The notes: a model not told the origin generated them from the sequence alone. 64,000 bases of DNA from Rikenellaceae bacterium (GCA_031547885.1 JAVBRO010000002.1:29886-93885), one strand, 5' to 3'. Numbered from the stretch's first letter, positions 27,457-50,575 are shown. Program-made: numbers and translations.

Positions 27457-27489
27457 GATCTTATTGGTTTAATTATTGCCCCGCAAGTC

Positions 27490-28401
27490 TTATATAGTAT
27501 TGTCAATGGAGATGTTCCGCCTCCATCCATCCACGATAACCGTGAAAAAATTATTGCCCATCACATATTCGAAGACTATGAGTCCTCCCGCCCATGCCCC
27601 CCGGGGAAGGTTGTCCTTCGGGACGGAGAGTGTTGCATAGACGTTTTGTATGGTCCTGACATCGACGCTGATGGTTTTATCGGCGGCGGAAGGCATGACG
27701 CCGAAACGGCCGGTGGCGTAATGCGTATGGTCGTCCGAAGTGTCGTTCAGTTGCGCGACCACATTGGCTTCTTCACCGAATCCCCGGAATTCCATATCCA
27801 TCTTCGACATCACTCCCTTCACAACGGCATAATTCTGCACCCCGGGTTCATAGATAATCTTTCCCCAGTCGATCACGTAAACTTCGACACGGCATGCGGC
27901 GTAGATCATTCCGATCCGGTGGTGCGACGATTGATTATACGATTCCGTAAAGGCCGACCGTCCCAGATAGAGTTCGTGGGGGACCGAACTGTAATAGCTG
28001 TTGTATTGGGTGGTGAGCTCTTCGGAGATCAGCTCTTCGTCGAGCATCTCGCCATACTCCCACTCAGGTATGTTCTCTTCTGGATTAGCGATCGGAACGG
28101 CCCATGCCACCAGGTCGATATCGCCGTTCATTTCCTGCGTTTTGCGCACCGTGCATGACTTACCGTTACTTATCTGTGAATAGGGGATCCGTATGCCTTT
28201 GATCAATTTTTTATCGCGGAACACATACAGTTGCACGTCGTTGCCGATCCTGGTGTCGTAGGTGCCCGGGACATATATGTCTTCGAGATAGAACGACAGT
28301 GTCATATCTGCGGGGCAGTCGTCCATGCCTTCGCGCAGACAGCCCCAGAGCCCAAGGCAGAGTGATACAGCCAGGTATATGATTGCTTTTTTCACGTTCA
28401 T
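27490..28401 (-). CDS. FimB/Mfa2-family fimbrial anchor-like lipoprotein
   Basis: 303 aa with a lipoprotein signal and LYVFRDKKLIKG. Size and position after the major subunit are typical of the Mfa2 anchor. Confidence 0.55.
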   Translation of the reverse strand: MNVKKAIIYLAVSLCLGLWGCLREGMDDCPADMTLSFYLEDIYVPGTYDTRIGNDVQLYVFRDKKLIKGIRIPYSQISNGKSCTVRKTQEMNGDIDLVAWAVPIANPEENIPEWEYGEMLDEELISEELTTQYNSYYSSVPHELYLGRSAFTESYNQSSHHRIGMIYAACRVEVYVIDWGKIIYEPGVQNYAVVKGVMSKMDMEFRGFGEEANVVAQLNDTSDDHTHYATGRFGVMPSAADKTISVDVRTIQNVYATLSVPKDNLPRGAWAGGLIVFEYVMGNNFFTVIVDGWRRNISIDNTI

Positions 28402-28496
28402 CTCGTTTAAGTCGTTTTTTTAAATACCGGGGCGGGAATCCTGGGGGGGGCCTCGCCCCGGCGGGAATTACTATAGAAAAAAACTTAGGCTTACAT

Positions 28497-29774: not shown

Positions 29775-29832
29775 AATCGTAAATTTTTAATGAATAGATA
29801 GAGTTGTTATTCGGTTATGGTTATAATGGTTT

Positions 29833-31251: not shown

Positions 31252-31257
31252 GATGTA

Positions 31258-31998
31258 CTATTTGATAAGATAGACCAATGTTATTCCCGCGCTGGTGGGA
31301 CCGAAATAGTTGCGCTGCCGGCCTACGCCGGCGCTTTCGCCGCAGTGGGGACAGTCGTAGCGGTCGTAGCGCATGTAGCCGTATCCCACCCCGATGGTGA
31401 ATTCGATGTTCCATTTGCGGTTGAGCATCAGGCCGTAGCCGTAGGAGAAGCCCACCCCTGCCATCCAGCCGTCGTAGCGGTATTCTTTCGAGCCTTTGCC
31501 GAACATCAGCGGCATCTCATGTTCTGAAATGTTATACTTTGTGTAGAGCAGGTGCCCGCCTATGAAATGGCCGTTGAAACGTTCGCAGAACCAGTGACGG
31601 TATTCGCCCTGAACGAGCCAGTGGGCCAGTTTCCGGTTGTCCTCGGCACTCCCGTTAAGGTTCCAGCCGTTGTATCCGGCCCCAAGGGCGAGGGTGCTGC
31701 GGCGTCCTAGTCCCGCTTCGAGCCCGAGGTTGGGAGCTAAAGCCAGCCCGCCGTAAAGCAGGTTGGTCTTTATGGCGAACTTCATCGGGGTGCCGGTAAG
31801 AACAGCCTTGCTGCCTGATAAGGAATGTTGGAGATCGATTTGCGGCGAACTAACCGAACCTGCCGCTTCGCTTAGGGGTCGAGCGCTCATCCCCACATCT
31901 GTCTGTCCCCGCAGCCCCGATACTGGACACAGTATCAGCAACGACAGCAAGACTGTATATATGACTTTTGAATTCATGCCTCTGTTATTAATATTCAT
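31258..31998 (-). CDS. DUF3575-like outer membrane protein (first structural gene of type V pilus locus)
   Basis: 246 aa with a signal peptide and Gly/aromatic-rich beta-barrel-like sequence. The start overlaps the upstream small ORF's stop (ATGA). Confidence 0.6.
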   Translation of the reverse strand: MNINNRGMNSKVIYTVLLSLLILCPVSGLRGQTDVGMSARPLSEAAGSVSSPQIDLQHSLSGSKAVLTGTPMKFAIKTNLLYGGLALAPNLGLEAGLGRRSTLALGAGYNGWNLNGSAEDNRKLAHWLVQGEYRHWFCERFNGHFIGGHLLYTKYNISEHEMPLMFGKGSKEYRYDGWMAGVGFSYGYGLMLNRKWNIEFTIGVGYGYMRYDRYDCPHCGESAGVGRQRNYFGPTSAGITLVYLIK

Positions 31999-32455: not shown

Positions 32456-34474
32456 ATGAAAACCCAAAGGAAAAACAAGAAAAAACCGGACGACGAGCCC
32501 GCCTTTCGAGAGCGTGCCGCACCAGTTGCGTCAGAGCATCCCAACGGGAATCGAGCCGCAGACAGCGAACATATTCTCGCAGTGCTGGTTCCGGGCATGA
32601 ATTGCCGGAAAGTGATACTGCGAGCGCAGAAGCTGGCTGCCGGAGGTTCGGGATGGAGCGTCATTTACACCAAGGATCCCTCTTCATGGAAGAACAACGT
32701 GCTGCTCGCGCAGGATCTGGAACTTGCACGGCGCCTCGGAGCCGACATAAAGGCTTTTCCCGGAAGCAGGCCGGTACAGGCATGTGCCGAAGCCGCCCGG
32801 AGAGAGAAGGCCGGCGTGATAGTGGTCGGACACAGAAAAGGGCTCATGCGCTACTTCGGCGACATCCGCCGCTTGCACAAACTTGCGACGTTGTGTCCTG
32901 AAACGGAGATATCCGTCGTGCCGGCAAATACATGGGATAAAGACCGGAAATGGCCCTCAGTTGAGCCCCTCCCGCAATACGTACGCAAACATGACCGCCT
33001 TCGGGTTTTTGCAACTATCGTGTTGTCCGCCATTGCAATAGCTGCACTCTGTACATTGATGCTGGGCCGCGAGGGCGCACAGTACGCTGCAACAGGCATC
33101 CTGTTGATTTTGCTCTATGTGATCGCGGCGACAGGAAGGGGAACCATATTATTCTTCGTGCTGCTTTCAGCTGTCGTTTTTACGGTCATGCTGATCTCCC
33201 CCTATTTTTCATTACAGTTGCATAATTTCAAAGAGGACCTCTTCTTTATTCTGTGCTTCTTCGCTATCGTCATTGCCAATGGACTGTTGGCACTCAGATA
33301 TCAAAAACATCGCAGGGAGATAGAGCGTCAAGCCCGCCACGCCAATGCGTTGTTCGAAACGGCGCGCAGGCTAGCTAATGCGACCGATATTGATTATGTG
33401 ATAAATGCAAGCATGCAGGAGATACATAAACACATCTCCCTGAATGTATTTTTCATCTTTCAGGACGGCAAGGGAAATCTGACCAACCGTAAATTTGTCC
33501 CTAAAGAATCAATTCTAACTGCGGATGACATGGAAGCCGCCCGCTGCGCTTTTAAACACAATCGCCAAACGGGGCGTTTTACTTCTCACTGCAGTTCGTC
33601 CCGCTATACATTCGACCCTCTCAATGCACCGACGCGTCGGTTGGGTGTTGTTGTAACGGAACTGAACCGGCAACCCGATGCGGATGCGGTTGTTTTCCGC
33701 GACGAAATGTTCGAGCAGATCGCTCGTACGCTGGAATTCCATCTCGTGCAACGTCAGGCGAGAGACGCCAAATTGCTGAAAGAGTCGGGAGAGCTTTACA
33801 AGACGCTGTTCAAATCCATTTCGCATGAACTGAGAAGTCCCCTGTCGGCAATTGTAGGGGCTTCGGATATCCTGCTTTCCAAGCCCCACGCCGATGCTAC
33901 CGACCGTGAACTTTGCGTGGTGATAATGAAGGCTTCGGAACGGCTCGATAAAGTGATCGAGAATCTGCTCAATATGTCGCGCCTCGAATCGGGACATATA
34001 GCGGCCGATCCCGTTCCGTGCGACGTCTATGACCTTTTGGCGAGTGTTGCCAACAATTTGTCCACGGAGCTCTCGGCTTTCGACTTCCATATTCGAATGC
34101 ACGCCCCGGTTCCTATTGTGGAACTCGACTTCGGATTGACGGAACAGGCGCTCTATAACCTCGTGTACAATTCCACTCAGCATGCGCCTGCGGGAACGGC
34201 GATCACCCTCGAAGCCTCGTATGCGGATGGTTGGATCGAACTTGTGGAAACCGACAGCGGGTCTGGTTTCGACGAAAGCTCCCTGACACATGTGTTCGAT
34301 AAGTTCTGGCGCAAAAAAAACAGCAAGCCCGGAGGCCTGGGACTCGGCCTGTCGATAGTAAAAGGCTTTGTAGAAGCCCAGGAAGGTACGGTTGCAGTCG
34401 CCAACAGAACGGAAGGCGGGGTACGCTTCACGATCAGGATCCCGGTTAAAACCGTAAATACACCCGAAGTATGA
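32456..34474 (+). CDS. Sensor histidine kinase, KdpD C-terminal-half type (Usp domain - 4 TM - GAF - HisKA - HATPase), lacking the KdpD N-terminal sensor domain
   Basis: Usp-like region (ILAVLVPGMNCRKVILRAQKLA...VIVVGHRKG), then 4 TM helices. H-box SHELRSPLSAI; N-box/G-boxes (DSGSGFDESSL, GGLGLGLSIVKG). Confidence 0.75.
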   Translation: MKTQRKNKKKPDDEPAFRERAAPVASEHPNGNRAADSEHILAVLVPGMNCRKVILRAQKLAAGGSGWSVIYTKDPSSWKNNVLLAQDLELARRLGADIKAFPGSRPVQACAEAARREKAGVIVVGHRKGLMRYFGDIRRLHKLATLCPETEISVVPANTWDKDRKWPSVEPLPQYVRKHDRLRVFATIVLSAIAIAALCTLMLGREGAQYAATGILLILLYVIAATGRGTILFFVLLSAVVFTVMLISPYFSLQLHNFKEDLFFILCFFAIVIANGLLALRYQKHRREIERQARHANALFETARRLANATDIDYVINASMQEIHKHISLNVFFIFQDGKGNLTNRKFVPKESILTADDMEAARCAFKHNRQTGRFTSHCSSSRYTFDPLNAPTRRLGVVVTELNRQPDADAVVFRDEMFEQIARTLEFHLVQRQARDAKLLKESGELYKTLFKSISHELRSPLSAIVGASDILLSKPHADATDRELCVVIMKASERLDKVIENLLNMSRLESGHIAADPVPCDVYDLLASVANNLSTELSAFDFHIRMHAPVPIVELDFGLTEQALYNLVYNSTQHAPAGTAITLEASYADGWIELVETDSGSGFDESSLTHVFDKFWRKKNSKPGGLGLGLSIVKGFVEAQEGTVAVANRTEGGVRFTIRIPVKTVNTPEV

Positions 34475-35154
34475 ATGACACACTGATACTCATCGTAGAC
34501 GATGAACCGGCCATCCGCCGGCTGCTTGTAATAGCCCTGCAGACGGAAGGATATAAGACAATAGAGGCTGCTACCGGAGAGGAGGCCCTGGCCATGACTG
34601 CGTCGTACAATCCGGCCATGGTCCTGCTCGACCTGGGGCTGCCGGGAATAGACGGCAAAGAAGTGCTGAACCGTCTGCGAGAATGGTATGCCCGGCCGAT
34701 AATGATCCTGTCTGTCCGCAATTCGGAAGAGGATATAGTGGTAGCCCTGGACAGCGGTGCAAACGACTATCTTACAAAGCCTTTCCGCGTCCGGGAACTG
34801 CAGGCGCGGATTCGGCTTTCACTACGGAAGCATGGAGAAACAGATTCAGACCCGGTGATCGATGTGGGTAATTTGAGCATTGACCTGGCTAACCGCATCG
34901 TCCGCAAGAGTGGCGAAATACTCCGCTTTACATCCACCGAATTTGCCATGCTGTCGCTGTTTGCCCGCAACCGCGGCCGCGTGCTTACACATCAATATAT
35001 CATAAGGGAGGTATGGGGCGATCTGGTTTATGCCGACCAGAGCCAGAATCTGCGTGTATTCATAGCTAGTCTGCGTAAAAAAATAGAGCCTGATCCGTCG
35101 GAGCCCACTCTGCTGCTTACCGAATCGAGGATCGGCTACCGGTTCGGGTTGTGA
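34471..35154 (+). CDS. OmpR-family response regulator, KdpE-like
   Basis: Receiver domain (LIVDDEP...LLDLGLPG.DG) plus a winged-helix trans_reg_C domain (LTHQYIIREVWG...LRVFIASLRKKIE). 4-nt overlap with the kinase gene. Confidence 0.85.
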   Translation: MNDTLILIVDDEPAIRRLLVIALQTEGYKTIEAATGEEALAMTASYNPAMVLLDLGLPGIDGKEVLNRLREWYARPIMILSVRNSEEDIVVALDSGANDYLTKPFRVRELQARIRLSLRKHGETDSDPVIDVGNLSIDLANRIVRKSGEILRFTSTEFAMLSLFARNRGRVLTHQYIIREVWGDLVYADQSQNLRVFIASLRKKIEPDPSEPTLLLTESRIGYRFGL

Positions 35155-35316
35155 ATACACTTTCTAATATCCGCTGCTCAAAGAATGGCACTTTCCGGTA
35201 AAAAGCAGACTACCTCACATTTATCTCCTTAAAACTCCAATCGGCAAAATATTTCGTTTCCACATCGCAGCCGTGTTTACTTTTCATTTAACATTGATTT
35301 CCGGGAAATTCCATTC

Positions 35317-36582
35317 TTAATAGAATTTTGAAGCTTCGCCGCTCATTTGCGTCCCTGAAGACAGCAAGCCGAGGATGCCGCCGTAGCCCGATTTTGTTTT
35401 GCCATCCGGAAGCGGCGAAACCCCACCGTGCGTGAGCGAAAAGCGGCGGGAAGAGAACGGCGGGAAGAAGAACAACTGCGTCTCCTTCCGTTCCTTGCCC
35501 GAACCCGTCAACGTCCATGCCTTCTTATAATCGGCGGGCATCATGCGCCATGTCTCGCCCGTATCCAGGTCTGTTACCGTGAGCGAGCCTTTCCACCCGC
35601 CCGAGTTGCGTGCGCCGCCGTACGGCACCCAGCGAGATGGGGTTTGCTTGCGGTCGCCCACCTCGGCCGGAGCGACACTCAGTTGTATGACGGTGCAGTC
35701 CGGTTCGTAGGCGACACCGACAAGGGTGATCTTGGTCCCATTATCCACCCATTCTTCGCCTTTCTTCACGGCTTTCGGGGTCATATACAAAATAGGCGCC
35801 TGGGTCCCGACCATTGTAAAGCGGTTCAGGGCGCTTTGTTTCAGGGTAAATTCCTTGTACTTCAAAATGTCGTATCCCTTAGGGTCCTTGCCGCCGCCTT
35901 TTTCTTCTATATCGTAAAAGTGTCCCATCAGGCGCTCGGTCTGGCGGTCTATGGTCTGCTCCCATGCGTCCACACCGTCGAGCCCTACGGAGAGGGCTAG
36001 CATCTCGCCTGCATCTTCGGGAAATGCGGCGAGTTCCACCCAACCGGTTTTGCCGTCGGCGGTCGTGATGTTGAATTCCCGCTCGTTGAATGAGATTCCG
36101 TTGACTGTTACCTTTTCATCGACGCGGAGTGATGACGCACCCCCCTTTTGGTTTCGCTTTTCGTAAAGTTTGGGTGCGGAGCCGTCTGGCAGGACCTGAA
36201 TATAGTCGCCGCAGTAGATCGAGGCAAACACACGGTTGCTGTTTTTATAATATGAGGTCGTGCCCTTCCATCCGAAAAAAACGATCGCCACGGCCGCCGC
36301 GATCGCAATGAGTTTCCGCCCGTGTCGTATCCGCCGGAAATTCCAGATGAACACCAATGCTGTGATCGCCGCAAGAATGACCAGCGGGTATAGCATGAAT
36401 GCCTTTGCCAGTATCCACGCGCCGCGTAATCCGGCGGCAAGTATCAGTATGATCACGGCGATAAATGCGCCCCCTATCGCGTATAAGATAATAGGGCCCA
36501 TTGAGCCCAACATAGCGCTGCCCATTGCCGTTGTTGCCGCGGCGGCTTTCTCCGCTGCTCTTCTTTGTTGTATGTCGTCCAT
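35317..36582 (-). CDS. Polytopic membrane protein with large C-terminal soluble domain (hypothetical)
   Basis: 3 to 4 N-terminal TM helices, then about 280 aa of soluble sequence. Last gene of the six-gene minus-strand operon. Confidence 0.5.
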   Translation of the reverse strand: MDDIQQRRAAEKAAAATTAMGSAMLGSMGPIILYAIGGAFIAVIILILAAGLRGAWILAKAFMLYPLVILAAITALVFIWNFRRIRHGRKLIAIAAAVAIVFFGWKGTTSYYKNSNRVFASIYCGDYIQVLPDGSAPKLYEKRNQKGGASSLRVDEKVTVNGISFNEREFNITTADGKTGWVELAAFPEDAGEMLALSVGLDGVDAWEQTIDRQTERLMGHFYDIEEKGGGKDPKGYDILKYKEFTLKQSALNRFTMVGTQAPILYMTPKAVKKGEEWVDNGTKITLVGVAYEPDCTVIQLSVAPAEVGDRKQTPSRWVPYGGARNSGGWKGSLTVTDLDTGETWRMMPADYKKAWTLTGSGKERKETQLFFFPPFSSRRFSLTHGGVSPLPDGKTKSGYGGILGLLSSGTQMSGEASKFY

Positions 36583-36671
36583 GATATTTTTATTTTACGT
36601 CCACTCTTTTGAGGACTTTAAATTTGAATCGTTAATTATTGGTTTATAAATAAAGCATGTCTTAGAACTCT

Positions 36672-38300
36672 CTACTGCGTGACTACAGGGATATAGCCGG
36701 TGTAGGTGCCGGTAAGTGTGTAGGGATTGCTGCTGGCATCCACCACGTTCAGGTTGAGCGTGATCGCATAAGTATCGCCGTCGAGGCCCACTGTTACCGA
36801 GCCGCTCTGGGGCGTCAGTTGGTGTCCGTTGAATATGCCGTACTGGAAGAAGCAGACATGGACCGTGCTCGCCCACATGGTGCTGAAGTTATACGTCCCG
36901 GCCAGCAGGCGGACATACGTGGCGGGCATGGTCAGCGTCAGGGGCACGGCGTCCGTAGCCACTCCGCCGGAATAGAACGTGAGCAGGGCCCTTCGGCCCG
37001 TGGCGTCGTTCGTAATAGTCTGCGTCGCGCCGTCAAGTACCAGCGAGTTGGAGAGTTTACTGAAGATGAAGTTCCCCGTTCCACCCGATGGCTGCTCGGC
37101 CGGGGGCGGCGTTCCGTCGGCCCTCACTGCCTTTTGTGTGATCTTTACCTCCTTGGTTTTTCCACCGCACGAGATGGCAACCCAGCCGGTGCGTTCCTCG
37201 CCCGTGCGGTTTACGTTGAGAGCGAAGGACATGCTGTGCTGCCCTGCCGCCGCGCCGGAAGCCGGACTCGGAGTGATCCAGTCGGGTATCACGGCCGATG
37301 TAATCCCGCGGATAGCCGACGTCCATGCGCCGGTTGTGGTGAACACCAGGTCGGTCGCGCATGTGTTGTCCGCGTAGACAGTCTGGACGAGATTGGCCTC
37401 GTCGCGTATCGTTATGGGGTCCGCGCCGGCGGGAGCAACGCCGCCCGTGACGTAACCCGTGTATTTGCCGGTTATGGTGCCCGTCACGCCGTCGTCGGAC
37501 GCGACTGTGATGTTGAGATCCAGAGTGTATGTGTTGCCGCTCAGGCTGACCGTCACCGTTCCTCCATTGGCGGTGTAACCCTTCGTTCCGATCGTGCCTT
37601 TGCCTGCAAAGAAACTGTTGTTCGTGGCGACGGGAGTGGGGCTGAAACGGTATGTGCCCGCAATAAGCCGCGAGGGCGCCTGCGCCATATGGAATTCGAG
37701 GTATAACGCATCGTCCTGCGCTACTCCGTTCTTATAGAAAGTCACTCTGGCCTTGTTCACGGCGGAGTTAACGGCGCTGATGCTCTGCCTCGCGCCGTCG
37801 ACCGGAAGCGACACGGTGGACCAGTTGTAGATAAAATTCCCTGAACCGCCGTACTCCGCCTCAACGGGCGTCGTTCCGTCGGCCTTGGTGCCTTTCTGGG
37901 TTATTGTGATGTCGATCTTCTCGCCGTCGCAGTCAATGGTGATCGTTGCCGCGCGGTCTTCGCCGGAGGTGTTGGGGTCGAGGGTTATCTCCACCTTATG
38001 TTTGCCCGCGCCCCCGCTGGCGGGAACGATGGTAACCCAAGACGTCGAGGGCAAATCGCTGACTGACGAACGAACCGCGCTCCCGGCGATGGAAGAGGTC
38101 CACGGAGCGGCGGTGGTGAAATCGACGCTGGCGGCCACCCCTTCGTTGTCGGCGAAAACGGTGGGCGTCAGGTTCTGGTTGCCGGGCACGGTTATCGTGG
38201 CGGGCGTTCCTTCTTCCGCTCCTTTGTCGCACGCCGTGAAGAGCATTGCGGCCGGAAGCAATAATGCGATGAATGAGAATGATTTTTTCATTTGTATCAT
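36672..38300 (-). CDS. Lipoprotein with two BACON-like domains and an internally duplicated ~250-aa module
   Basis: Lipoprotein signal MKKSFSFIALLLPAAMLFTAC. Two BACON-like cores (WVTIVPASGGAGKHKVEITLDPNTSGEDRAATITI.CDGEKIDITITQ and WITPSPASGAAAGQHSMSFALNVNRTGEERTGWVAISCGGKTKEVKITQ), each followed by a similar GTxADGTxP...GGxGNFI module. Confidence 0.55.
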   Translation of the reverse strand: MIQMKKSFSFIALLLPAAMLFTACDKGAEEGTPATITVPGNQNLTPTVFADNEGVAASVDFTTAAPWTSSIAGSAVRSSVSDLPSTSWVTIVPASGGAGKHKVEITLDPNTSGEDRAATITIDCDGEKIDITITQKGTKADGTTPVEAEYGGSGNFIYNWSTVSLPVDGARQSISAVNSAVNKARVTFYKNGVAQDDALYLEFHMAQAPSRLIAGTYRFSPTPVATNNSFFAGKGTIGTKGYTANGGTVTVSLSGNTYTLDLNITVASDDGVTGTITGKYTGYVTGGVAPAGADPITIRDEANLVQTVYADNTCATDLVFTTTGAWTSAIRGITSAVIPDWITPSPASGAAAGQHSMSFALNVNRTGEERTGWVAISCGGKTKEVKITQKAVRADGTPPPAEQPSGGTGNFIFSKLSNSLVLDGATQTITNDATGRRALLTFYSGGVATDAVPLTLTMPATYVRLLAGTYNFSTMWASTVHVCFFQYGIFNGHQLTPQSGSVTVGLDGDTYAITLNLNVVDASSNPYTLTGTYTGYIPVVTQ

Positions 38301-38302
38301 AT

Positions 38303-40102
38303 TTAATTGGTTTGCGTTCTATTTTTATATGCCGTCTGAAGCCTGCGCAGCGCCACGGCGAATTGCCGCACATCCGAGGTACAGGTGTTCGAAAAAGTTA
38401 TGTACGCAGGATCGTCGTCCTGATATTCGAATATGGGTTCTTCGGGGGCTTCTATCGTGATCTCCCCGAACGAGAGGTGTTTTCCGGTCAGCTTAACCCC
38501 TTTGATATCCGAATAGGAAATGGATTCTATGGTTCCCGCCTCGGGAGCATCCTCATACACGCGCCAATCGTTGGTTATGACCGATACGCTGTCGGCTTCC
38601 AGCAGCACGATCTTGTATTCCACCGCCGAATCGCCGTAATTCGGGCCGTCTTCCCTGTAGTCGAAAAAATCATTCAGGAAAAGCGTTTTGCCCCTCAGGT
38701 CGTTTTCGCTTTTGCCGTGCCGCGCGAGTTCCGTCTCCACTGCCGTCGACAGGAAACACTGTATGAACAATATTATCTGGGTGTCGGTCGGCTTGGTGCG
38801 ATAGAGTTCTTCCGCCAGGGCGTATGATTCCCATACACTGAGATTGTGGATGCTTGCAGCCCGTCTGCGTTCACGCAGCCTGACAAACGCGCTCATGGTA
38901 ATTATCAGCCACAACCACAGCGGCGAGCAGACGATGATAAACCAAATCGTGCCGCCCGCACTCTTTTTCAACCACAGGACGTTCTCAACCTGTTTTTTTC
39001 CATCCTTTTCCGACATAAGGCGGATATGCGTGGCGGCCATAAGGCTGTCCTGCCGCGCCGTGGAGATGGAATCCCTCGTCATTTGTCCGATGAGCGCTGC
39101 ACATTCTGCGGCCGTGAGTTTTTTCCCGGCCTCCGCCTCTTTGAGTTCGACGGTTCTTTCTACGGACATACGGTAAAGCGGATGTTCCGTCGTATCGAAG
39201 CCCCAGCCTGCCAGCAAGCAGACCGTGAAAAACGCCAATGCCAGCAACAGGTTGAGCGCAAATCTCCATGTGCGTTGCAGGGCCAGCACGAAATACGACC
39301 CCTTCGGCCGCAGCCTTGCCTCTTCTAGCACGTTTGAGCCATATTCGGGCTTACGGGGTTCGAAACGGTAGTCGTAGAAGTGCCTGCGCTGCGCTGCCGT
39401 CAGGTTGTATGCCGCCTCGCACTCTTTCATGCCCGGGCTTTCGACGCCCTGTATATCGAGGCCGCCCGTCCGTGCGTCGTCGAGGGTAGCTGCGCCGGTC
39501 AGTATATCCAGATTGAACCGCGTGTCCGTACTGCAGAGGATGCAATGCTCCGTTATCTCGTCCAGTTCATCGGGCGAGTAGTTCATAGCCTGTTCGAAAA
39601 GAGACCTGGGAGTATCACCCTGCACGACCAGTTGGTTCTGGATGTAATACTCCTGCTTGACCACAGCCAGCAACGCCAGATACTTGCACCTGGTTTCCAT
39701 TCGTATTGCCGTGCCAAGGTATTGCTCCGCACGCCCGACCTCCGACGCCGGCATCGTTTTGACGTTCTTCCCCGCCAACAGCGCAAGGGCGTAGTAATAA
39801 TAAACCTCTGCATCGAGCGGCGAGCGGTCTATGGCATCCCGCAGGCTATGGCGTGCCAACTCATAGTTCTTCAGGTTCAGGTATAGAAGCCCCATCGCGT
39901 AGAGCGAATCGACGTCTTTCGGGTTCTTCTTGGTTTTCTTTGCGTAGAAAGCGATATATTCATTGGCGACTTTCGGGGTTATTTTAAGAGGATTGCGTTT
40001 CGATTTGATGATATTTTTATTGCCGCAGTATTCGCACGCCAACGATCCGGGTACCAAGGGAGACCCACAGCCCGAACATTGTAATATTTCCAACTGCGCC
40101 AT
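38303..40102 (-). CDS. N-terminal zinc-ribbon (CxxC-x13-CxxC) / TPR-like / two-TM membrane protein (hypothetical)
   Basis: MAQLEILQCSGCGSPLVPGSLACEYCGNKN, followed by TPR-like helical repeats, TM segments (ALNLLLALAFFTVCLLAGWGF; TIWFIIVCSPLWLWLIITMSAFV) and a 200-aa C-terminal domain. Confidence 0.5.
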   Translation of the reverse strand: MAQLEILQCSGCGSPLVPGSLACEYCGNKNIIKSKRNPLKITPKVANEYIAFYAKKTKKNPKDVDSLYAMGLLYLNLKNYELARHSLRDAIDRSPLDAEVYYYYALALLAGKNVKTMPASEVGRAEQYLGTAIRMETRCKYLALLAVVKQEYYIQNQLVVQGDTPRSLFEQAMNYSPDELDEITEHCILCSTDTRFNLDILTGAATLDDARTGGLDIQGVESPGMKECEAAYNLTAAQRRHFYDYRFEPRKPEYGSNVLEEARLRPKGSYFVLALQRTWRFALNLLLALAFFTVCLLAGWGFDTTEHPLYRMSVERTVELKEAEAGKKLTAAECAALIGQMTRDSISTARQDSLMAATHIRLMSEKDGKKQVENVLWLKKSAGGTIWFIIVCSPLWLWLIITMSAFVRLRERRRAASIHNLSVWESYALAEELYRTKPTDTQIILFIQCFLSTAVETELARHGKSENDLRGKTLFLNDFFDYREDGPNYGDSAVEYKIVLLEADSVSVITNDWRVYEDAPEAGTIESISYSDIKGVKLTGKHLSFGEITIEAPEEPIFEYQDDDPAYITFSNTCTSDVRQFAVALRRLQTAYKNRTQTN

Positions 40103-40108
40103 GCCCGG

Positions 40109-40543
40109 TTACTCTTTTTTCATCAGTTTTCGGTTCTTCCCGCGGGTGATCTCCTCGTCCGCTTTATGCCGCGCGTCTGTCTCGGCGATCAACGCCCCCG
40201 CGATCAGCCATAACAGGGTCAGGATGACAAGGGCCGTGATGTAGACTTTCAGCGGCATAAGCGCCGAGAAAAGGATCAGTACCGCGCCGCTCGCAATATA
40301 ATACACCGCGCAGACGCCCATGATGGAATAGAACGCGCCCGTGAATTTCTTGCGTCCCGCGCGCACCACGGCGATAAACCCAAAGAAGATCAGTTCCAGC
40401 AGGATGCCGTAGCCGAGATTGACAAAAAAGAGGGTTTCCCTCGTTTCCGGCTTCGTCCAGACGAAAGCCAGGGCGACAGTCGCCGCGATCGTCAGGAGCG
40501 GCACGACCACGGCGGAAAATATGATTACGGATGATTTTGCCAT
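40109..40543 (-). CDS. Small 4-TM membrane protein (hypothetical; start at MAKSS)
   Basis: Four hydrophobic helices in about 144 aa with a basic C-terminal tail (KADEEITRGKNRKLMKKE). The maximal ORF extends upstream into the SPFH gene. Confidence 0.45.
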   Translation of the reverse strand: MAKSSVIIFSAVVVPLLTIAATVALAFVWTKPETRETLFFVNLGYGILLELIFFGFIAVVRAGRKKFTGAFYSIMGVCAVYYIASGAVLILFSALMPLKVYITALVILTLLWLIAGALIAETDARHKADEEITRGKNRKLMKKE

Positions 40544-40556
40544 GTCGGTTCGGTTT

Positions 40557-41711
40557 TTAGAGTGTCGGGGGCGCGCCGAAGAGCGGCTGCAACTCGGGAC
40601 AATCGACGGCCTTCGCCCACTCGCCCATGCCCGGCTTCCACACGTAGGTTTCTTTAGTGAGCTGCCCATTTTGCGCCATCTCAGAGAGAGTGGCCATGTC
40701 GAAAGGCCCCTGTTGTGCGTTGTTCACCAGAATATGGAACGATGCCGGGGGAGGCGGCGTTGTCGGGGCCGCTGCACCCATTTGCCCTGCCATGTCGCCC
40801 ATCTGGCCGCCGAACGCTCCACCCACGCCAACACCCATGCCGAGTCCCATCCCGGCGCCCATCACCTGACCTGCCGAGCCTTCGTTGCCGGCCGCGGTTT
40901 CCATCACGTCGAACGAGCGTTCCTGCTGATAAGTATAGCCCAGCCGCCGCTGGCGCGTAAGTTCACGCTGTATCTCGCGTGCGTCGGCCAGCTGTTCGTT
41001 CTCTATGGGCACGATGCGCTCCACATCGAACTGGACCACCTCGACGCCGTATTTGGCGAACTCGCCGGCGATCTGCCCGTGCACGAACTCCGAAGCCTCG
41101 TCGGTCTTGCCGGCCAGTTGCGTGAAATTTATATTATGTGCCGAAACGTACCCGTTGATCAGCGTACTTAGCTTGCGGTTGATCAGCGCCTTGAAATTAG
41201 TGAGGATATCATCGGTGGTCTGGATGGCGAGAGTGCCCACGATCTCGGTAATAAAAGTCACACTGTCGGCGATCCGCACACCGAACTCTCCCGCCACACC
41301 GATCTGGATTTCCAGTTGATAGAACGGGTCGAACACGGTGATTGGTGTCGCCGAACCCCACTTCAGCCCCCTCTTGGCCGTCTTGTTGACGAACCAAACC
41401 TCGGCCGAGAACGGCGTGTTGCCGCCGAAAGGCAGGTTCACCAACTTCTGTAACAGGGGAATGTTGTTGGCAGACAGCGTATGGGTTCCCGCAGTGAACA
41501 GGTCGCGGGCCATGCCGCCCTTGTAGAATACCGCATCCTGGCTCTGGTTGACGATAAGCTGCGCCCCGATGCTCAGGTTGTCGTACGGAAATTTCCACAC
41601 CAGTTCGTCCGCCTCACCGTTATATTTTATCCGGTCTATGAAACCCTGACGCTCATCGCCCTGCCCGTCATACGTCATGCCATCCGTCCGTTCTTTTTTG
41701 AATATGCCCAT
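40557..41711 (-). CDS. SPFH/Band-7-family protein (Band_7_1-like) with Gly/Met-rich linker and C-terminal small domain
   Basis: 384 aa with an SPFH-like core similar to YdjI/Band_7_1 proteins by recall. A GxGMG-rich low-complexity linker precedes a 50-aa C-terminal domain (DUF4339/GYF-like). Confidence 0.6.
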   Translation of the reverse strand: MGIFKKERTDGMTYDGQGDERQGFIDRIKYNGEADELVWKFPYDNLSIGAQLIVNQSQDAVFYKGGMARDLFTAGTHTLSANNIPLLQKLVNLPFGGNTPFSAEVWFVNKTAKRGLKWGSATPITVFDPFYQLEIQIGVAGEFGVRIADSVTFITEIVGTLAIQTTDDILTNFKALINRKLSTLINGYVSAHNINFTQLAGKTDEASEFVHGQIAGEFAKYGVEVVQFDVERIVPIENEQLADAREIQRELTRQRRLGYTYQQERSFDVMETAAGNEGSAGQVMGAGMGLGMGVGVGGAFGGQMGDMAGQMGAAAPTTPPPPASFHILVNNAQQGPFDMATLSEMAQNGQLTKETYVWKPGMGEWAKAVDCPELQPLFGAPPTL

Positions 41712-41720
41712 ATCTTTTTT

Positions 41721-42698
41721 CTATTTTCCCAAAGTATCCGACCACACGGTTTTATTCCGTCCGCCTATTCTCGTTGTAACCTGGAAGGTGGTTCCCGCGG
41801 CGAACAGTTTTTCCAGCACCGCTCCCGTGAACATGGCGCAGATCATCACTTCGATCACATCGAGGGCCATATATAGCACAGCCGTAAAACCGACCGCATA
41901 AGTGATCACGTAGATCAGCGCGATGAGCGGGGTGCGGATATAGTAGACGAAGAATATGATCACCTGAATAACCTGAGAGATGACCAGGCCCCAGAAAATG
42001 TACTTGTTGTATTCGGCCTCCTTATTCATAAGCCCCACGACAGCGAAGGCGGCGAATCCCAACGCCAAAACGACTATGGTAAGGAAGCAGCCTCCCTGTC
42101 CTTTTTCCGCCCCTTTGGGAGTCGATTCGGCGATCAGCTGCAGCGTCTGGAGCCATAGGAAGACCTGTACCCCGAGGAACAACACGAACGCCAGGAAATA
42201 GACCGTCGCCTTCCACCAGCTACCCAGAACGAACGGAGAATAGAACGTGAACTGGTAACCGTTTGCCAGGTACAGTATCTCGAGAACGCTGGCCAGCAGT
42301 ATCCCGGCCATCAATATGGGGATGCGTACTTTTCTTACCTTTATGGTTGCCAGCGACAGGATGAGTGTAGCCAATACGATGATGATCCCCCATGTGACCA
42401 TTTGGGTCTCTTTTTCGACCCGGTCATCGGCAAGGGCTTTCATTTTTTGCGCGGCATCGTCCAGCGGATCGAGTCGCTTGATCTTCATATAGCCGGTTTT
42501 CTCACCGGCGGTGATCGAACACCAGCCGTTATACTGTAGGTTATTGACACAAACCTCTTCGCCCTTGTCGACCGAACCCCTGGCAGGGGTCAGTGTCGAG
42601 GGCGAACCGTACAGGTTCACGTCGAAGTTGCAGACGAATTTCTGCGCCGAGACAAGCATCGGGCAGATTATCATGATAAGTAGCAAAAGTCTTTTCAT
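41721..42698 (-). CDS. Membrane protein with N-terminal extracytoplasmic SH3b-like domain and about 7 TM helices (hypothetical)
   Basis: Signal peptide MKRLLLLIMIICPMLVSA, an SH3-like stretch (GSVDKGEEVCVNNLQYNGWCSITAGEKTGYMKI), then multiple TM helices. Confidence 0.5.
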   Translation of the reverse strand: MKRLLLLIMIICPMLVSAQKFVCNFDVNLYGSPSTLTPARGSVDKGEEVCVNNLQYNGWCSITAGEKTGYMKIKRLDPLDDAAQKMKALADDRVEKETQMVTWGIIIVLATLILSLATIKVRKVRIPILMAGILLASVLEILYLANGYQFTFYSPFVLGSWWKATVYFLAFVLFLGVQVFLWLQTLQLIAESTPKGAEKGQGGCFLTIVVLALGFAAFAVVGLMNKEAEYNKYIFWGLVISQVIQVIIFFVYYIRTPLIALIYVITYAVGFTAVLYMALDVIEVMICAMFTGAVLEKLFAAGTTFQVTTRIGGRNKTVWSDTLGK

Positions 42699-42772
42699 AT
42701 ACACTGGTTATTAAGTACGGCCCAAACGTACTCCAGGGGCATATGAAAAACATAGACAAAAATAGATTTTAG

Positions 42773-44569
42773 TCAGATGATCATCCGGAACGGGTCTTCT
42801 TTCGGAAATTTTTTCCGGATGCGGTAGCGTACGGTTCGTACGCTCGCAGGCTCGACGTTGAATATAAGGCTGATGTCACGGACGTCAACGTCAGCGTTGA
42901 AGCAGATGATATATTTCATGTCCATGCCGGTGATCTTAACCTTCGAAGTGCGGTATGCCTGTCCGAGAGTACCGCTGTCGATCCGGGACAGCCGGTCGAG
43001 ATATCTCTTTTTATCCTCTTTTCCAATGGGCGAGTCGGATATCATTCGGGCCATTTTCGCAACGGCGCTTTCCACCGGATCGCCCTGTGCATCCTGTCCG
43101 TTGCCGGCCTGCATTTTGTCCAGCTCGTTCTGACGAAGTTCTGCGAGCAGGGCTGTTTCGTAAAGCCGTTGTTCTACGTTTTTTCGCTTCAGGCGGCCGC
43201 TCACGGCTACGAAAACAAGCGTCGTCAATAGCAACAGGAGTAATCCGATGGCCAGTGTCAGGATGATCCTGGCTGTCCTGTTCTCTTTGGTCAGGGTCTG
43301 GATCCGTATTTCCTTTTTTTCCGTTTCATATTTGGCCGACATATCGTTCATGGCCTGGACTTTCTCCTTTTCGTAACGCCTCGCCTCTGTGTCGAACAGC
43401 ATTTTATGATATTTAAGAGCTTCGCCGGGCTGTCCGGCTTTTTCGTAATATTCGACCATAAATTCATATGCGTCGTGTCGAAGTACGCTCAGATTCTCGT
43501 AATTATGCAGCTGGTCGAGCATCTCCAGGGCTTCGTTCATCGCGGCGAGGGACTCGCGCATCCGCCCTTCGCGCAGGAGCGCCTTAGCCCTCACTTCATT
43601 CATGTGGATTTTCAATTCGAGACGGGAGTTGTTTTCGTTATGCCGTCCCATACTTATTTCCAGTTCCATCATCTCCGCCGCTTTATCGAGGTTCGACAGG
43701 ATCGCGTCCGTCCGCTCGGGATAATAGTCGTTCAGCTCTCTGGCCAGAAAGTAATAGGCATACCCGTGCATCCAGGAGGCCGCCAGATCCGCGAAATTGT
43801 TTTCTACAAGTTCAATGTTCTTACGGACATACAGCAGACACAAATCTATAATTTCCTGATCGAACGGCTCGCCATTCTTTTTCTGGCTTTCGAGCAGCAG
43901 CCCGTAATAGCTGTGTTTGATGACGTTATACTGGTATTGCGACTGCGGGAAATTGTCCTTTTCGAGGTAATCCTCCATCTCTTTCAGAACCCTTTCCAGG
44001 GCATCTGTATCCTTGATGTCGAAAAAGCTGCCGGCAATGGTATAAAGCGCCGTCGACGACCATGTATACATCTCCATTTTGTCGAAATAGTGAATGGCCA
44101 GATAGAGGTATTCGTGTGCCTTTTCGGTTTTTCCGCGTTTGATCTCCCTGCCGGCATTCGCATAGCTCATGAGCGCACAGGCCTGGTCTTTCCCGGACTC
44201 TATGGCCGCTTCGAGGGCTTTTTCGCCGAATACGCGCTCCATTTCGTCATCGCCTTCGCCGGCTCGTTCGCGGTAGCAGAAACTTATCGATATGTATAGC
44301 TGGGAAAGGCCGGCCAACTGGGAGGACTTATCAGACCAGTTTTCCTGAACGAAAGGATACAGTACCGTGCGGCATAACTCCTCCGCCTCTTCCGGCGAGG
44401 AGTTGGAGCATACCATATTATATCCTGATTTGAAACGTGTTTCCACGTCGAGAGAGTCGTTATGCAGGATTGTCTGAAGGGAGTCCCTTACGTTGAATTG
44501 TTGTCCGTAAGCCACAGATGCAAAGAGCAGGCAAAGCAGGAATATCGGGTATAGTCGGGTTAGCTTCAT
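42773..44569 (-). CDS. Single-pass transmembrane regulator: periplasmic TPR-like domain - TM - cytoplasmic LuxR-type HTH
   Basis: Signal peptide from MKLTRLYPIFLLCLLFASVAYG (start 44569). Long helical TPR-like region. TM helice ILTLAIGLLLLLLTTLVFVAV. C-terminal DMKYIICFNADVDVRDISLIFNVEPASVRTVRYRIRKK resembling a LuxR/GerE HTH. Confidence 0.55.
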   Translation of the reverse strand: MKLTRLYPIFLLCLLFASVAYGQQFNVRDSLQTILHNDSLDVETRFKSGYNMVCSNSSPEEAEELCRTVLYPFVQENWSDKSSQLAGLSQLYISISFCYRERAGEGDDEMERVFGEKALEAAIESGKDQACALMSYANAGREIKRGKTEKAHEYLYLAIHYFDKMEMYTWSSTALYTIAGSFFDIKDTDALERVLKEMEDYLEKDNFPQSQYQYNVIKHSYYGLLLESQKKNGEPFDQEIIDLCLLYVRKNIELVENNFADLAASWMHGYAYYFLARELNDYYPERTDAILSNLDKAAEMMELEISMGRHNENNSRLELKIHMNEVRAKALLREGRMRESLAAMNEALEMLDQLHNYENLSVLRHDAYEFMVEYYEKAGQPGEALKYHKMLFDTEARRYEKEKVQAMNDMSAKYETEKKEIRIQTLTKENRTARIILTLAIGLLLLLLTTLVFVAVSGRLKRKNVEQRLYETALLAELRQNELDKMQAGNGQDAQGDPVESAVAKMARMISDSPIGKEDKKRYLDRLSRIDSGTLGQAYRTSKVKITGMDMKYIICFNADVDVRDISLIFNVEPASVRTVRYRIRKKFPKEDPFRMII

Positions 44570-45184
44570 ATCTGTAGTAGTAAGAGAATGGGTTTTTATT
44601 TCACACGAATATCGGAATAAATTCCGTGAATGCATCATATACGATTGCAAAATAAGCATTTATATTTAGAAAACGGTCACCGGATCGGTAACAATCATGG
44701 AACTGGTCAGAGCTGTCATCGGGATTAACTGCAATACTGTGTTCCCAAATTTCACCCATCCCGGTTTGACCACCTCAAAAAGGAGTGCCGAGAAAAACCG
44801 GTATAGGTAGATATTTATAAAACAAAAATCTTAACACCCGGCAATCAGGGTGCGAAGAGGCTTCAAGGGAGTATAATTTTGTGAAAAACACCGACTGCCG
44901 GAACCAAATGGATACTATATGGACAAACATCTGACGATCCCCCACCCTGTTTTAAATAATCTGTTGATTTTCATGTTGAAGCCGGTCTCTGTTGCCATCG
45001 AGAAAACCCTGCGTAAAAAAATCTTAATTTTTTCGTATAAAACACGTAAGAAATTTCATTTTTTTTTGGAATGAAAATAATAAAGTATTACTTTTGTTTT
45101 GAAATGAAAGATATTGTCTTCAAATCGAAACCTAAGCTATGTGAAAATTAAGCCTTAAGTATTAACAAACAACCCATCAACTGT
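44570..45184. promoter_or_regulatory. 615-bp divergent regulatory region containing G(A/G)AATGAAA direct repeats and a TACTTTTG -7 box
   Basis: GGAATGAAAATAATAAAG and GAAATGAAAGATATTG lie about 30 nt apart around a TACTTTTG -7-like motif, upstream of the phosphoesterase start at 45185. AAATTTCATTT palindrome. Confidence 0.4.
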
Positions 45185-47194
45185 ATGAAGCAACATTACT
45201 TGAAACTAATCCTTATTTTCACGTTTACATTCAGTCTTCTTAGTGTTTCTGTCGGCTGCAGCAAAGAACCTGCTGCAAAACCGGCAGACGACATCGCACT
45301 GAGTGTCAAACTACCGTCGGTATACACCCTGCCGCCGGGCGGAACCCTCGTCTTTCTTGGAGACGGCTTTTTAAAAGGCGACAAGATCCAATTGGTGGGC
45401 AGCGATGCCACACTGACCGTCAACATCTCGATTATGGAGAATGGAGCGGTGTCGTTCGTCCTGCCGGAAAATTTCGAATGGGGTTATTACAAATTCGTTC
45501 TCATAAGAGGAGATGCCAAAAAGACCCTGGGTTATTCGCATATCTCTTTCGGGATCAAGCTGGATGTTCCTGAAGTCGAAGGCATGAATCTCAGAGGCGC
45601 AGTAACGACGGCCGACGGAGCGGGCGTTCCCGGAGTTTCCGTTTCCGACGGTGTCGAAGTCGTACAGACGGATGCGAACGGGCTTTACTATATTGCGTCG
45701 AAGAAAGAGTCGGGATTTGTGTTTATTTCCGTGCCGGGCGACTACACGGTGGAAATGGATGCATCCACACCTGTTATGTACAAGCGCACGGCTTCGTACA
45801 GCAAAGATGTCTCGGAAAGGTTCGACTTTTACCTGGCCCCGGCCGACAACACCAAATATACGCTGATCGCAGCCACCGACTTTCACCTGGCCGACAGGAA
45901 TAATGACCTTGGGCAGTTCCGCCAGGGTTTTGCGTCTGAAATAACGGCGCTCGGCAGGACGAAGAACGTGCATTGCGTTACTATGGGCGACCTGACGTGG
46001 GACCTTTACTGGTACAGCCTGTCGTTCACGCTGAGTAAGTTCAGGACGGAGTTGAGTTCTATAAACGTTCCGATGTACCACACCATGGGCAACCATGACT
46101 ACGATATGAAGGGGCGCAAACTGACCAGTTCGGACATCACACCGCCTTATGTTTACAACTCGACATACGCCTACATGAACACCAGCGACTGGGTGTCTGC
46201 CGGCACATGGCGCACGGATATGGGGCCGACCTACTATTCGTTCAACATCGGCGAGGTGCATTACATCGTGGTCGACAATATGAACTGTACGAACGGCGGG
46301 ACTTCGGACACCCGGACCTACACCGGAATGATCGACGCGAACCAGATGGCATGGGTGGCGAACGACCTGAAGTTCGTGGACCCGTCCACCCCGATATTCG
46401 TGACGATGCACATACCGCACAAGGGACAGCCCAGCACCGCCAATGTCGCGTCTAACAACCTGACCAACTCCGCGGCGTTCAAGACACTGTTCAACGGCTA
46501 CAAGGAAGTGCATATCCTGACGGGCCACACCCACGTAGGTTATAACGTGGTTGAAGAATCGGGCGGCGACCTGTGGTACGAGCACAATACCCCCGCTGTT
46601 TGCGGAACATGGTGGTGGACCGGCAGACCGGGATACACCGACAACAACGTCGCTCCCGACGGCGCTCCGGGCGGTTATTGCGTTTACGAAATCGACGGAA
46701 AAAATATCACATGGAAGCAGAAAGGTGCGGGTAAAAGCATCGACTACCAGTTCCGTTCCTACGACCTTAACAAGACAGTGCTGCTTGCCAGCGAGTGGGT
46801 GCCCAACGCCACTGCGGCATTGAAATCTTCATGGGCTTCCAGTTCGTACGCAGGTTCATATCAGACGGCTAAAACCAATGCGATCCTTCTCAATATATGG
46901 AACTGGGATCCGGCATGGAAGATCAAGCTGACCGAAGGCGACGGCGCTTCGGCCAAAACCCTGACAGCAACCCGCGTACAGCGCAGGGACCCGCTTCAGA
47001 TGATCTCCTACACGGCTTTCAGCATGGACGGCGGAAGTTCTCCTACATTCGGCTCAAACAACTCGACGCACTTCTTCGAGGCGCAGGCGACCACCGCTAC
47101 CGAGACCATATATATAGAGGTAACCGACAGGTTCGGCAATGTCTATAAAGAAACCATGGCAAGGCCCAAAGCGGTTTCCCGTACTATGCAATAA
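45185..47194 (+). CDS. Lipoprotein calcineurin-like metallophosphoesterase with N-terminal carboxypeptidase-regulatory-like domain
   Basis: Lipoprotein signal (LLSVSVGCS). CarbopepD_reg-like stretch (GAVTTADGAGVPGVSVSDGVEVVQTDANGLYYI). MPP motifs (ATDFHL, GDLTWD, GNHDYD, MHIPH, GHTHVG). Confidence 0.8.
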   Translation: MKQHYLKLILIFTFTFSLLSVSVGCSKEPAAKPADDIALSVKLPSVYTLPPGGTLVFLGDGFLKGDKIQLVGSDATLTVNISIMENGAVSFVLPENFEWGYYKFVLIRGDAKKTLGYSHISFGIKLDVPEVEGMNLRGAVTTADGAGVPGVSVSDGVEVVQTDANGLYYIASKKESGFVFISVPGDYTVEMDASTPVMYKRTASYSKDVSERFDFYLAPADNTKYTLIAATDFHLADRNNDLGQFRQGFASEITALGRTKNVHCVTMGDLTWDLYWYSLSFTLSKFRTELSSINVPMYHTMGNHDYDMKGRKLTSSDITPPYVYNSTYAYMNTSDWVSAGTWRTDMGPTYYSFNIGEVHYIVVDNMNCTNGGTSDTRTYTGMIDANQMAWVANDLKFVDPSTPIFVTMHIPHKGQPSTANVASNNLTNSAAFKTLFNGYKEVHILTGHTHVGYNVVEESGGDLWYEHNTPAVCGTWWWTGRPGYTDNNVAPDGAPGGYCVYEIDGKNITWKQKGAGKSIDYQFRSYDLNKTVLLASEWVPNATAALKSSWASSSYAGSYQTAKTNAILLNIWNWDPAWKIKLTEGDGASAKTLTATRVQRRDPLQMISYTAFSMDGGSSPTFGSNNSTHFFEAQATTATETIYIEVTDRFGNVYKETMARPKAVSRTMQ

Positions 47195-47206
47195 TAAATT
47201 ATTATA

Positions 47207-50554: not shown

Positions 50555-50575
50555 CCGCTAAAGATTGACAGAGAT

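Follow-up and report, generated by a model that had tools for sequence, protein, structure and literature searches.

SPFH proteins are universal, and their roles in bacteria are understood for only a few types of operons. In Bacillus subtilis, the soluble Band_7_1 protein YdjI requires YdjG and YdjH for its localization to the membrane and in foci (PMC8581546; bioRxiv 10.64898/2026.02.06.704340). YdjG consists of two zinc ribbons, an NTF2-like domain and a transmembrane (TM) segment, YdjH contains a TPM domain, and YdjI is a Band-7 protein with a C-terminal zinc ribbon (PMC11237479). In another bacterial protein, GltJ, the GYF domain binds a proline-rich sequence, and GYF domains frequently act together with a zinc ribbon to form a switch (PMC11135422). 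Here we analyze a gene cluster of a Rikenellaceae bacterium, located in a stretch of 64,000 nucleotides (GCA_031547885.1 JAVBRO010000002.1:29886-93885; referred to below as the window). A sequence-only reading of the window had noticed six genes in this cluster, here designated A to F in their 5' to 3' order, and we find a seventh gene, U, on their 5' side. We interpret the seven genes (U and A-B-C-D-E-F), with a confidence that lies only a little above even, as a mosaic, inducible operon for envelope maintenance or stress that is assembled around an SPFH scaffold.

The SPFH protein of this cluster is B. As the sequence-only reading had proposed, it is a true Band_7_1 protein of the YdjI family, with a Pfam match (PF13421, COG4260; E 3.4e-41, 141.6 bits against a cut-off of 24) that covers profile positions 1-201 of 211. 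The Band_7_1 domain (residues 38-240) is followed by a conserved Gly/Met-rich segment (~278-310), a proline-rich stretch (P319-P321), and a GYF_2 domain (PF14237, formerly DUF4339; residues 326-374; E 3.6e-18, 65.5 bits against 25.8), and the GYF region also weakly matches the GltJ/AgmX GYF structure 7z3c (E 0.014). In the segment that precedes GYF_2, glycines alternate with hydrophobic residues, and its G-x-G-x-G run and the PPP are invariant features of the family; PPP or a longer run is found in the tail of 75 of the 80 family members. While YdjI has a C-terminal zinc ribbon, neither a Cys motif nor a zinc ribbon was found at the C-terminus of B, which ends in GYF_2 instead. TM helices, for which B and its family were examined by a Kyte-Doolittle scan only, are absent from B and from 79/80 family members. 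The family is large, with 3088 homologs of B at E<=1e-10.

The two genes downstream of B encode membrane proteins. C has four TM helices and nothing else, without any match in Pfam or NCBIfam. It is a short form within a small, dedicated family (66 representatives among 1.84 billion proteins), whose members are mostly ~250 aa in length and usually carry a cytoplasmic helical tail. Candidate Rosetta-stone fusions of C were rejected, as the two long matches amounted to an apparent fusion to a multi-TM C-terminal region plus a spurious repeat protein. D starts with a CxxC-N10-CxxC motif at residues 9-26 (C9, C12, C23, and C26), for which the Pfam zinc-ribbon matches are sub-threshold (E 0.01). 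The motif is followed by a TPR region (~43-245; TPR_17, E 8.5e-9), two TM helices (281-299 and 389-407) with an extracytoplasmic loop of ~80 aa between them, and a C-terminal domain (~427-598) that is beta-rich with a terminal helix. Fold searches with the full model of D gave TPR matches alone.

To see how these genes are organized elsewhere, we used B as the anchor of a search in GTDB species representatives, which found 266 loci. From these, 80 loci, nearly all labeled as Bacteroidota, were fetched and analyzed, and synteny was counted in the 68 loci whose downstream sequence extends for 2.5 kb or more. The trio of an SPFH protein, a small membrane protein and a zinc-ribbon protein that the sequence-only reading had singled out is indeed syntenic: B, C, and D keep this order and share one strand in 59/68 loci, and C comes after B in 61/68. 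Carriers of B-C-D include the human-gut genera Segatella, Bacteroides, Alistipes, Barnesiella, and Paraprevotella. No protease, YidC or Sec gene is conserved around B-C-D in the 80 loci. Judged by this synteny, B-C-D is an SPFH module conserved throughout Bacteroidota, and an uncharacterized one. Our searches of Pfam, NCBIfam, PADLOC, PHROGs, and the literature returned no characterized system of this composition and no paper describing the cassette, which agrees with the earlier statement that none was known.

The module comes in two architectures. The commoner one consists of a protein with a TM segment and a soluble domain (neighbor family cl3), a protein with a TM segment and a YidD domain (cl4; PF01809, E 1.7e-12), B, a C protein of ~250 aa, and a soluble zinc-ribbon/TPR protein of 195 aa, with cl3 sometimes placed at the end instead. 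Across the 80 fetched loci, 32 cl4 genes are located directly upstream of B. In the loci of this first type (L009-L058 and others), the cl4 product is a YidD paralog, YidD being a membrane-protein insertion efficiency factor, fused to 1-2 TM helices; it is missing from the clade of the window. The second architecture, which includes the window, is distinguished by a D protein of 560-670 aa with two TM helices. The two forms of D are cleanly separated, as the short form has 0 TM helices in 45/45 members and the long form has 2 in 26/26. The C-terminus of the long form is homologous to cl3 (hhalign, 96.2%, E 2.4e-9), and D in the lineage of the window is therefore a fusion of the soluble zinc-ribbon/TPR protein with a cl3-like domain. 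From the order of its strands and helix, the domain shared by D and cl3 may be PH-like. We also looked for a polyproline ligand of the GYF domain in the consensus sequences of C, D, cl3, cl4, and cl5 (a family described below), and saw a single, unconvincing candidate, a Pro-containing motif before TM1 of the long form of D (YxYEPxxP...KPxYP).

Among described systems, the pspA-ydjGHI (samGHI) operon of B. subtilis is the closest to this module. Both combine a soluble Band_7_1 protein (YdjI/SamI) with two integral membrane proteins, one of which carries an N-terminal zinc ribbon, and the B. subtilis operon is stress-regulated, with the membrane proteins recruiting the SPFH protein (PMC8581546). 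The sequence-only reading had drawn this parallel for the trio as a whole, and it holds for B. The other two proteins differ in architecture: C is a bare 4-TM protein without the TPM domain of YdjH, whereas D combines one ribbon with TPR, 2 TM helices and the cl3-like domain, instead of the two zinc ribbons, the NTF2-like (YpeB-related) domain and the TM segment of YdjG. The gene order is also reversed, B-C-D here vs. G-H-I in B. subtilis. Further, PspA_IM30 had no match in the seven operon proteins and ten flanking proteins (the rest of the genome was not searched), nor did a recurrent PspA-like neighbor cluster appear in the 80 loci. Going by homology, B alone is demonstrably related to the YdjGHI/SamGHI module, through YdjI. 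The operon as a whole falls outside the PspA-YdjGHI system and resembles it in broad terms only, in pairing a soluble SPFH protein with membrane partners.

Other SPFH operons are more distant. HflK/C-FtsH, stomatin/QmcA-NfeD, and the flotillin pairs YqiK/FloT-YqiJ/YuaF also co-encode an SPFH scaffold with a small multi-TM partner, and are expected to form oligomeric rings or cages at the inner membrane. Unlike B, their SPFH proteins belong to Band_7 (PF01145) proper and have a TM helix or hairpin of their own. The partners are of the NfeD type or FtsH, and none of these operons has a GYF domain, a zinc-ribbon/TPR protein or a YidD partner. Myxococcus GltJ likewise combines zinc-ribbon, GYF, TPR, and TM elements in an assembly platform beneath the membrane. 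The likeness is at the domain level only, since the zinc ribbon and the GYF domain are on separate polypeptides here (D and B respectively), and MglA/MglB, AglZ, and gliding machinery are lacking.

Upstream of A, the seventh gene, U, and a conserved promoter element extend the unit beyond the six genes of the sequence-only reading, all of which are real. U has a signal peptide, an extracytoplasmic TPR region of ~430 aa (TPR_12, E 5.6e-4), one TM helix (465-483, numbered on the long open reading frame, ORF), and a cytoplasmic tail that ends in a helix-turn-helix (HTH)-like segment. Its start at M31 is backed by the N-termini of its orthologs and by the protein collection, where the 598-aa form has an exact match. 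Weak matches of the C-terminus of a U homolog to Sigma70_r4_2 and GerE (E 0.002-0.007) suggest that the HTH resembles LuxR or sigma-70 region 4, and U is probably a membrane-anchored one-component regulator. In its extracytoplasmic sensor domain, single TM helix and cytoplasmic HTH, U is similar to ToxR/CadC-like one-component regulators, but its HTH is predicted to be C-terminal and LuxR/sigma-70 region 4-like rather than an N-terminal OmpR-type winged helix. Orthologs of U (51-61% identical) are located upstream of A- and F-type genes in three other loci (L085, L091, and L092).

The DNA just 3' of U, aligned for the four U orthologs, is nearly identical in the window and these three loci, although the U proteins themselves are only 51-61% identical. 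In the window, the conserved element consists of the 21-mer TCTATTTTTGTCTATGTTTTT (42766..42746), which contains the direct repeat TCTAT-N5-TCTAT, followed after 15 nt by the -7 box TACGTTTG (42730..42723); in pattern form, the element reads TCTATTTTTGTCTATRTTTTT-N14-15-TACTTTTG. With up to 3 mismatches allowed, the 21-mer has just 11 copies in the 1.49 Mb of the window and the loci combined, and every copy is followed 14-15 nt on by TAC(T/G)TTTG and is upstream of A, F, B or genes that co-occur with them. The Bacteroidetes -7 consensus is TAnnTTTG, which TAC(T/G)TTTG fits. The cargo behind the nearly unchanged element differs from locus to locus: a gene for a 279-aa protein with A and F, F-x-A, or B-A. 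In the latter (L002/L095), the element ends 71 nt upstream of the start codon of B, while the copies in L089 and L091 precede F-type genes. L091, a 5.8-kb contig, holds two copies (229-249 and 4397-4417), each before a different gene, and this pair indicates a multi-operon regulon. The direct repeat is a plausible, putative site for the HTH of U.

Just upstream of U, at 44669-44794 on the minus strand of the window, is a relic of ~42 codons (FSALLFEVVKPGWVKFGNTVLQLIPMTALTSSMIVTDPVTVF) that runs into stop codons. It matches the TM region of an AraC-type membrane regulator, cl9 (tblastn E 3e-7 vs. L082 and 0.02 vs. L001). The cl9 gene adjoins B-C-D in related loci, directly upstream on the same strand in L082, L021, and L057, and upstream on the opposite strand in L001. 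The relic suggests that an ancestral regulator gave way to U and its promoter, perhaps through recombination at a shared A gene. In sister loci, the place of U is occupied by a pair of a TPR-sensor histidine kinase and a GerE/LuxR response regulator. In L087 and L088, F is preceded by genes for a TPR histidine kinase and a GerE response regulator and by a 131-aa gene, and L081 carries orthologs of all three in front of B-C-D-cl5 (67% identity for the response regulator, 54% for the 131-aa protein). Thus the same sensor-regulator families are found before B-C-D in one set of genomes and before A and F in another.

The domains that the sequence-only reading assigned to the six proteins are mostly right; the SH3 domain of A stays below threshold. 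A, starting at the ATG at 42698, which gives an MKRLLLL signal peptide (a GTG start at 42704 was listed before), has an extracytoplasmic, possibly SH3-like domain of ~60 aa and ~7 TM helices. Its match to SH3_3 (E 0.013, 16 bits vs. a cut-off of 27) is seen in 2/4 family members, and a profile of the family against the PDB gave SH3 domains only, albeit weakly (E 0.12 and 2.1). The A family is rare, with 8 loci in the JGI metagenomes, and homologs of A are present in just two of 82 B-anchored loci. A adjoins B in three diverged loci, namely the window, L082 (AraC-like regulator-A-B-C-D-cl5), and L002 (promoter-B-A). Contexts with U, A or F that lack B-C-D are found in L085 (U-279aa-A-F), L091 (U-F-x-A), L092 (U-x-x-A), and L094 (A-F). 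The 279-aa protein is a Sel1-repeat protein (Sel1, E 1.2e-33; L085 6082-6921 and L096 1022-1729) that recurs as cargo beside A behind the U promoter.

E is a lipoprotein with a lipobox (LFTAC, with Cys24) and two stretches matching BACON (Pfam E 6.8e-22, 77.7 bits). It is made of tandem copies of a unit of BACON plus a beta-rich domain of ~150 aa, the halves being 41% identical over 252 aa (E 1e-48), which confirms the duplication noticed before. Homologs of E were found neither in the 82 B-anchored loci nor in the A/F loci or viral contigs, and by this distribution the BACON lipoprotein is a lineage-specific addition. In the nearest relatives of the window (L001, L081, and L082, with B 75-88% identical), a gene of the cl5 family follows B-C-D in place of E and F, and neither E nor F has BLAST similarity to cl5 or to the lipoprotein genes downstream of D in these relatives.

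F has 3 TM helices and an extracytoplasmic region, and its structural model is confident (pLDDT 85.5). The model matches the SH3b cell-wall-binding domains of endolysins, NlpC/P60 proteins, InlB, AtlE, TagH, and lysostaphin, which assigns an SH3b-type cell-wall-binding fold to the modeled extracytoplasmic region. The residues invariant among 38 homologs of F are D126, G147, G162, T173, G180, W181, G203, D212, Y292, C296, T297, F373, F376, and F381; since no His is invariant, a peptidase role is unlikely, and F was rejected as an NlpC/P60 peptidase. This family is rare as well (43 homologs among 5.8 billion proteins), and none of its members is near B-C-D in the 82 B-anchored loci. Its members come from Bacteroidales and from spirochaetes of the genera Breznakiella, Brucepastera, and Treponema, with 45-58% identity between the two groups (L084, Breznakiella homolactica CP067089.2; P0127; P0136), a distribution that suggests gene transfer across phyla. 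Tandem paralogs of F (31-35% identical) are present in two metagenome-assembled genomes of Bacteroidales (L083, 10001-12555; L087, 10001-12542), and the pair in L083 is near ThsB_TIR, SLATT and nucleotide-modification genes.

The coordinates of the unit are given in Table 1.

Table 1. Genes and promoter element of the U and A-F unit in the window (feature; coordinates; strand; length; description and basis).
U	42773..44569	-	598 aa	ORF; seventh gene, 5' of A
Operator and promoter element	42723..42766	-		Between U and A; alignment downstream of U orthologs
A	41721..42698	-	325 aa	ORF
B	40557..41711	-	384 aa	ORF; Pfam
C	40109..40543	-	144 aa	ORF
D	38303..40102	-		ORF; zinc ribbon, TPR, 2 TM and C-terminal domain
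E	36672..38300	-		ORF; BACON lipoprotein
F	35317..36582	-		ORF; 3 TM and SH3b-type region

All long ORFs between 35317 and 44569 are on the minus strand, in the order U-A-B-C-D-E-F. The tight spacing of the six genes noticed before is borne out, with gaps of 9, 13, 6, 2, and 89 nt for A-B, B-C, C-D, D-E, and E-F respectively. U and A are 74 nt apart, measured to the ATG of A. The 2-nt spacing of D and E suggests translational coupling. Apart from the U-A promoter box, the minus strand has no TAnnTTTG between 35317 and 42700; a sole -7 box between 35317 and 42766 is consistent with a single transcript from A to F, and from gene spacing together with the lack of internal -7 boxes, A-F probably form one transcript. 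A scan for sigma-70 promoters and terminators stayed at background level, using a model that is ill-suited to Bacteroidota.

Convergent genes on one side and divergent genes on the other delimit U and A-F as a discrete unit. On the downstream side, convergent with F, are a KdpD-like sensor kinase (DUF4118, HisKA, and HATPase_c) and an OmpR-type response regulator (32456-35154, plus strand), beyond which lies a type V pilus-like cluster (26038-31998, minus strand) of a DUF3575 outer-membrane protein, an OmpA-TPR protein, and FimA-like and Mfa2-like fimbrial subunits. On the upstream side, divergent from U (45185-52105, plus strand), come a calcineurin-like metallophosphatase that has accessory domains at both its N- and C-termini, then a TonB-dependent receptor of the SusC type and a SusD-like lipoprotein. 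No compositional break was seen at the unit, Rfam gave no RNA family at 34800-45400, and a repeat search found short chance repeats alone, without mobile-element boundaries. The seven proteins had no meaningful match in NCBIfam, PADLOC or PHROGs.

In the interpretation of the seven genes as an inducible envelope operon, C and D, perhaps together with A, would probably keep the soluble protein B on the cytoplasmic side of the inner membrane. YdjI needs YdjG and YdjH to reach the membrane, and by analogy C and D probably bring B there, where it would probably oligomerize like other SPFH proteins. D would provide a docking platform of a cytoplasmic zinc ribbon and TPR, anchored by its 2 TM helices and continued by a cytoplasmic C-terminal domain. 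The GYF domain of B, as in GltJ, probably binds a proline-rich peptide, so that contacts between B molecules or between B and a partner are possible. The nearest candidate ligand is the invariant PPP of B itself, which would favor a head-to-tail assembly. A and F, as inner-membrane proteins, would tie the membrane to peptidoglycan through their predicted SH3-type ectodomains, and they form a separate module with U in related Bacteroidales of the termite-gut type, while E would add a lipoprotein on the surface or in the periplasm. Through its extracytoplasmic TPR domain, U probably senses an envelope cue, and it would then activate the U-A promoter by its cytoplasmic HTH. The operon would thereby link an SPFH scaffold beneath the membrane with wall-binding proteins and proteins of the surface, in an inducible envelope maintenance or stress response.

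We extend this only tentatively to the module at large, where the odds seem to us somewhat against rather than for the proposal. B-C-D with the cl3 domain, joined in most lineages by the YidD paralog, may represent an undescribed, PspA-independent SPFH membrane system specific to Bacteroidota, in which an SPFH-GYF oligomer is anchored by a zinc-ribbon/TPR platform and a 4-TM protein. In the termite-gut-type lineage, this system would have become part of a TPR-sensor regulon, with a common promoter for interchangeable, wall-binding envelope proteins.

Neighborhoods across Bacteroidota keep B-C-D together, but A, E, and F are rare or lineage-specific, and the six-gene composition does not recur as one conserved system: E and F never accompany B-C-D in the 82 loci, and A does so in two. 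It is therefore conceivable, although we consider it unlikely, that B-C-D is self-contained and that A, E, and F are unrelated passengers, which recombination happened to bring onto one strand, and perhaps into one transcript, without any common function. Such chance assembly would fit E and F being singletons among the B-anchored loci, their replacement by cl5 in the closest B-C-D relatives, and the unrelated contexts of F, whose neighbors in L083 are Thoeris/SLATT genes and which belongs to a variable island in the Breznakiella locus L084; the relic upstream of U, a remnant of the AraC-type regulator found ahead of (A-)B-C-D in related loci, also suggests rearrangement. It is at odds with the adjacency of A and B in three diverged loci, one of them a two-gene B-A operon behind the same promoter element, with the regulator families and promoter element that B-C-D shares with A and F in different genomes, and with the translational coupling suggested by the D-E gap. 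Several points nevertheless weigh against our preferred interpretation of an inducible envelope operon. The evidence for cotranscription of A-F consists of spacing and missing -7 boxes, and the 89-nt gap between E and F could house an unrecognized promoter. The SH3 assignment of A is sub-threshold, and the Pfam matches behind the HTH of U are weak and come from a homolog. With E having no homolog in related loci and F being found elsewhere in loci that lack B-C-D, the two may have no functional link to the core at all. A PspA partner appeared neither in the operon nor in the ten flanking genes or the 80 loci, and the YidD paralog that accompanies the core in most other loci suggests a role in the biogenesis of membrane proteins instead of stress repair.

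This last point leads to another account of the core, to which we give a small but real chance, namely a scaffold for membrane-protein insertion or quality control, in which an SPFH cage organizes insertion factors or proteases as HflK/C does for FtsH. SPFH proteins such as HflK/C and stomatin/NfeD regulate membrane proteases, and the commonest architecture has the TM and YidD-domain protein directly upstream of B; the window and its clade lack the YidD gene, however, and a conserved protease or YidC/Sec gene is missing from the neighborhood. Phage defense, raised by the sequence-only reading, is quite improbable. The SPFH, zinc-ribbon and TM proteins would then act against phages or in abortive infection, by sensing the infection and damaging the membrane, and the patchy distribution of this self-contained cassette with variable flanks could be read in that way, as could the one F homolog beside ThsB_TIR and SLATT genes. 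Yet PADLOC-DB 2.0 gave 0 matches at E<=0.1 for the seven proteins and PHROG none of note, 2.9 million viral contigs yielded just 3 partial relatives of B, no nuclease, protease or NTPase effector is encoded, and the flanks here hold pilus, two-component and polysaccharide utilization locus (PUL) genes instead of defense genes. The lowest probability of all, a very slight one, goes to an accessory locus for glycan utilization or surface display centered on E, whose two BACON domains and the SusC/SusD pair with the metallophosphatase 2.5 kb upstream, on the other strand, would be its basis. U lies between the operon and the PUL, whose transcription is divergent, the operon has no glycoside hydrolases, E is missing from all related loci, and both B-C-D and U-A-F recur without a PUL.

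The six-gene set is a mosaic of one genome whose function is inferential, and current views of SPFH biology are not overturned by it. Its anatomy is well established, and its physiological role far less so. The wider finding is a distinct, widespread type of SPFH operon in Bacteroidota, which encodes an SPFH-GYF protein, a 4-TM protein and a zinc-ribbon/TPR protein, usually together with a YidD paralog, and for which the libraries and papers searched hold no functional annotation. Its parts suggest contacts that can be tested, between the GYF domain and the proline-rich stretch, between TPR and SPFH, and by comparing the split and fused forms of D. The conserved promoter with its swappable cargo, putatively dependent on U, would offer a simple handle on the envelope signal that induces it.

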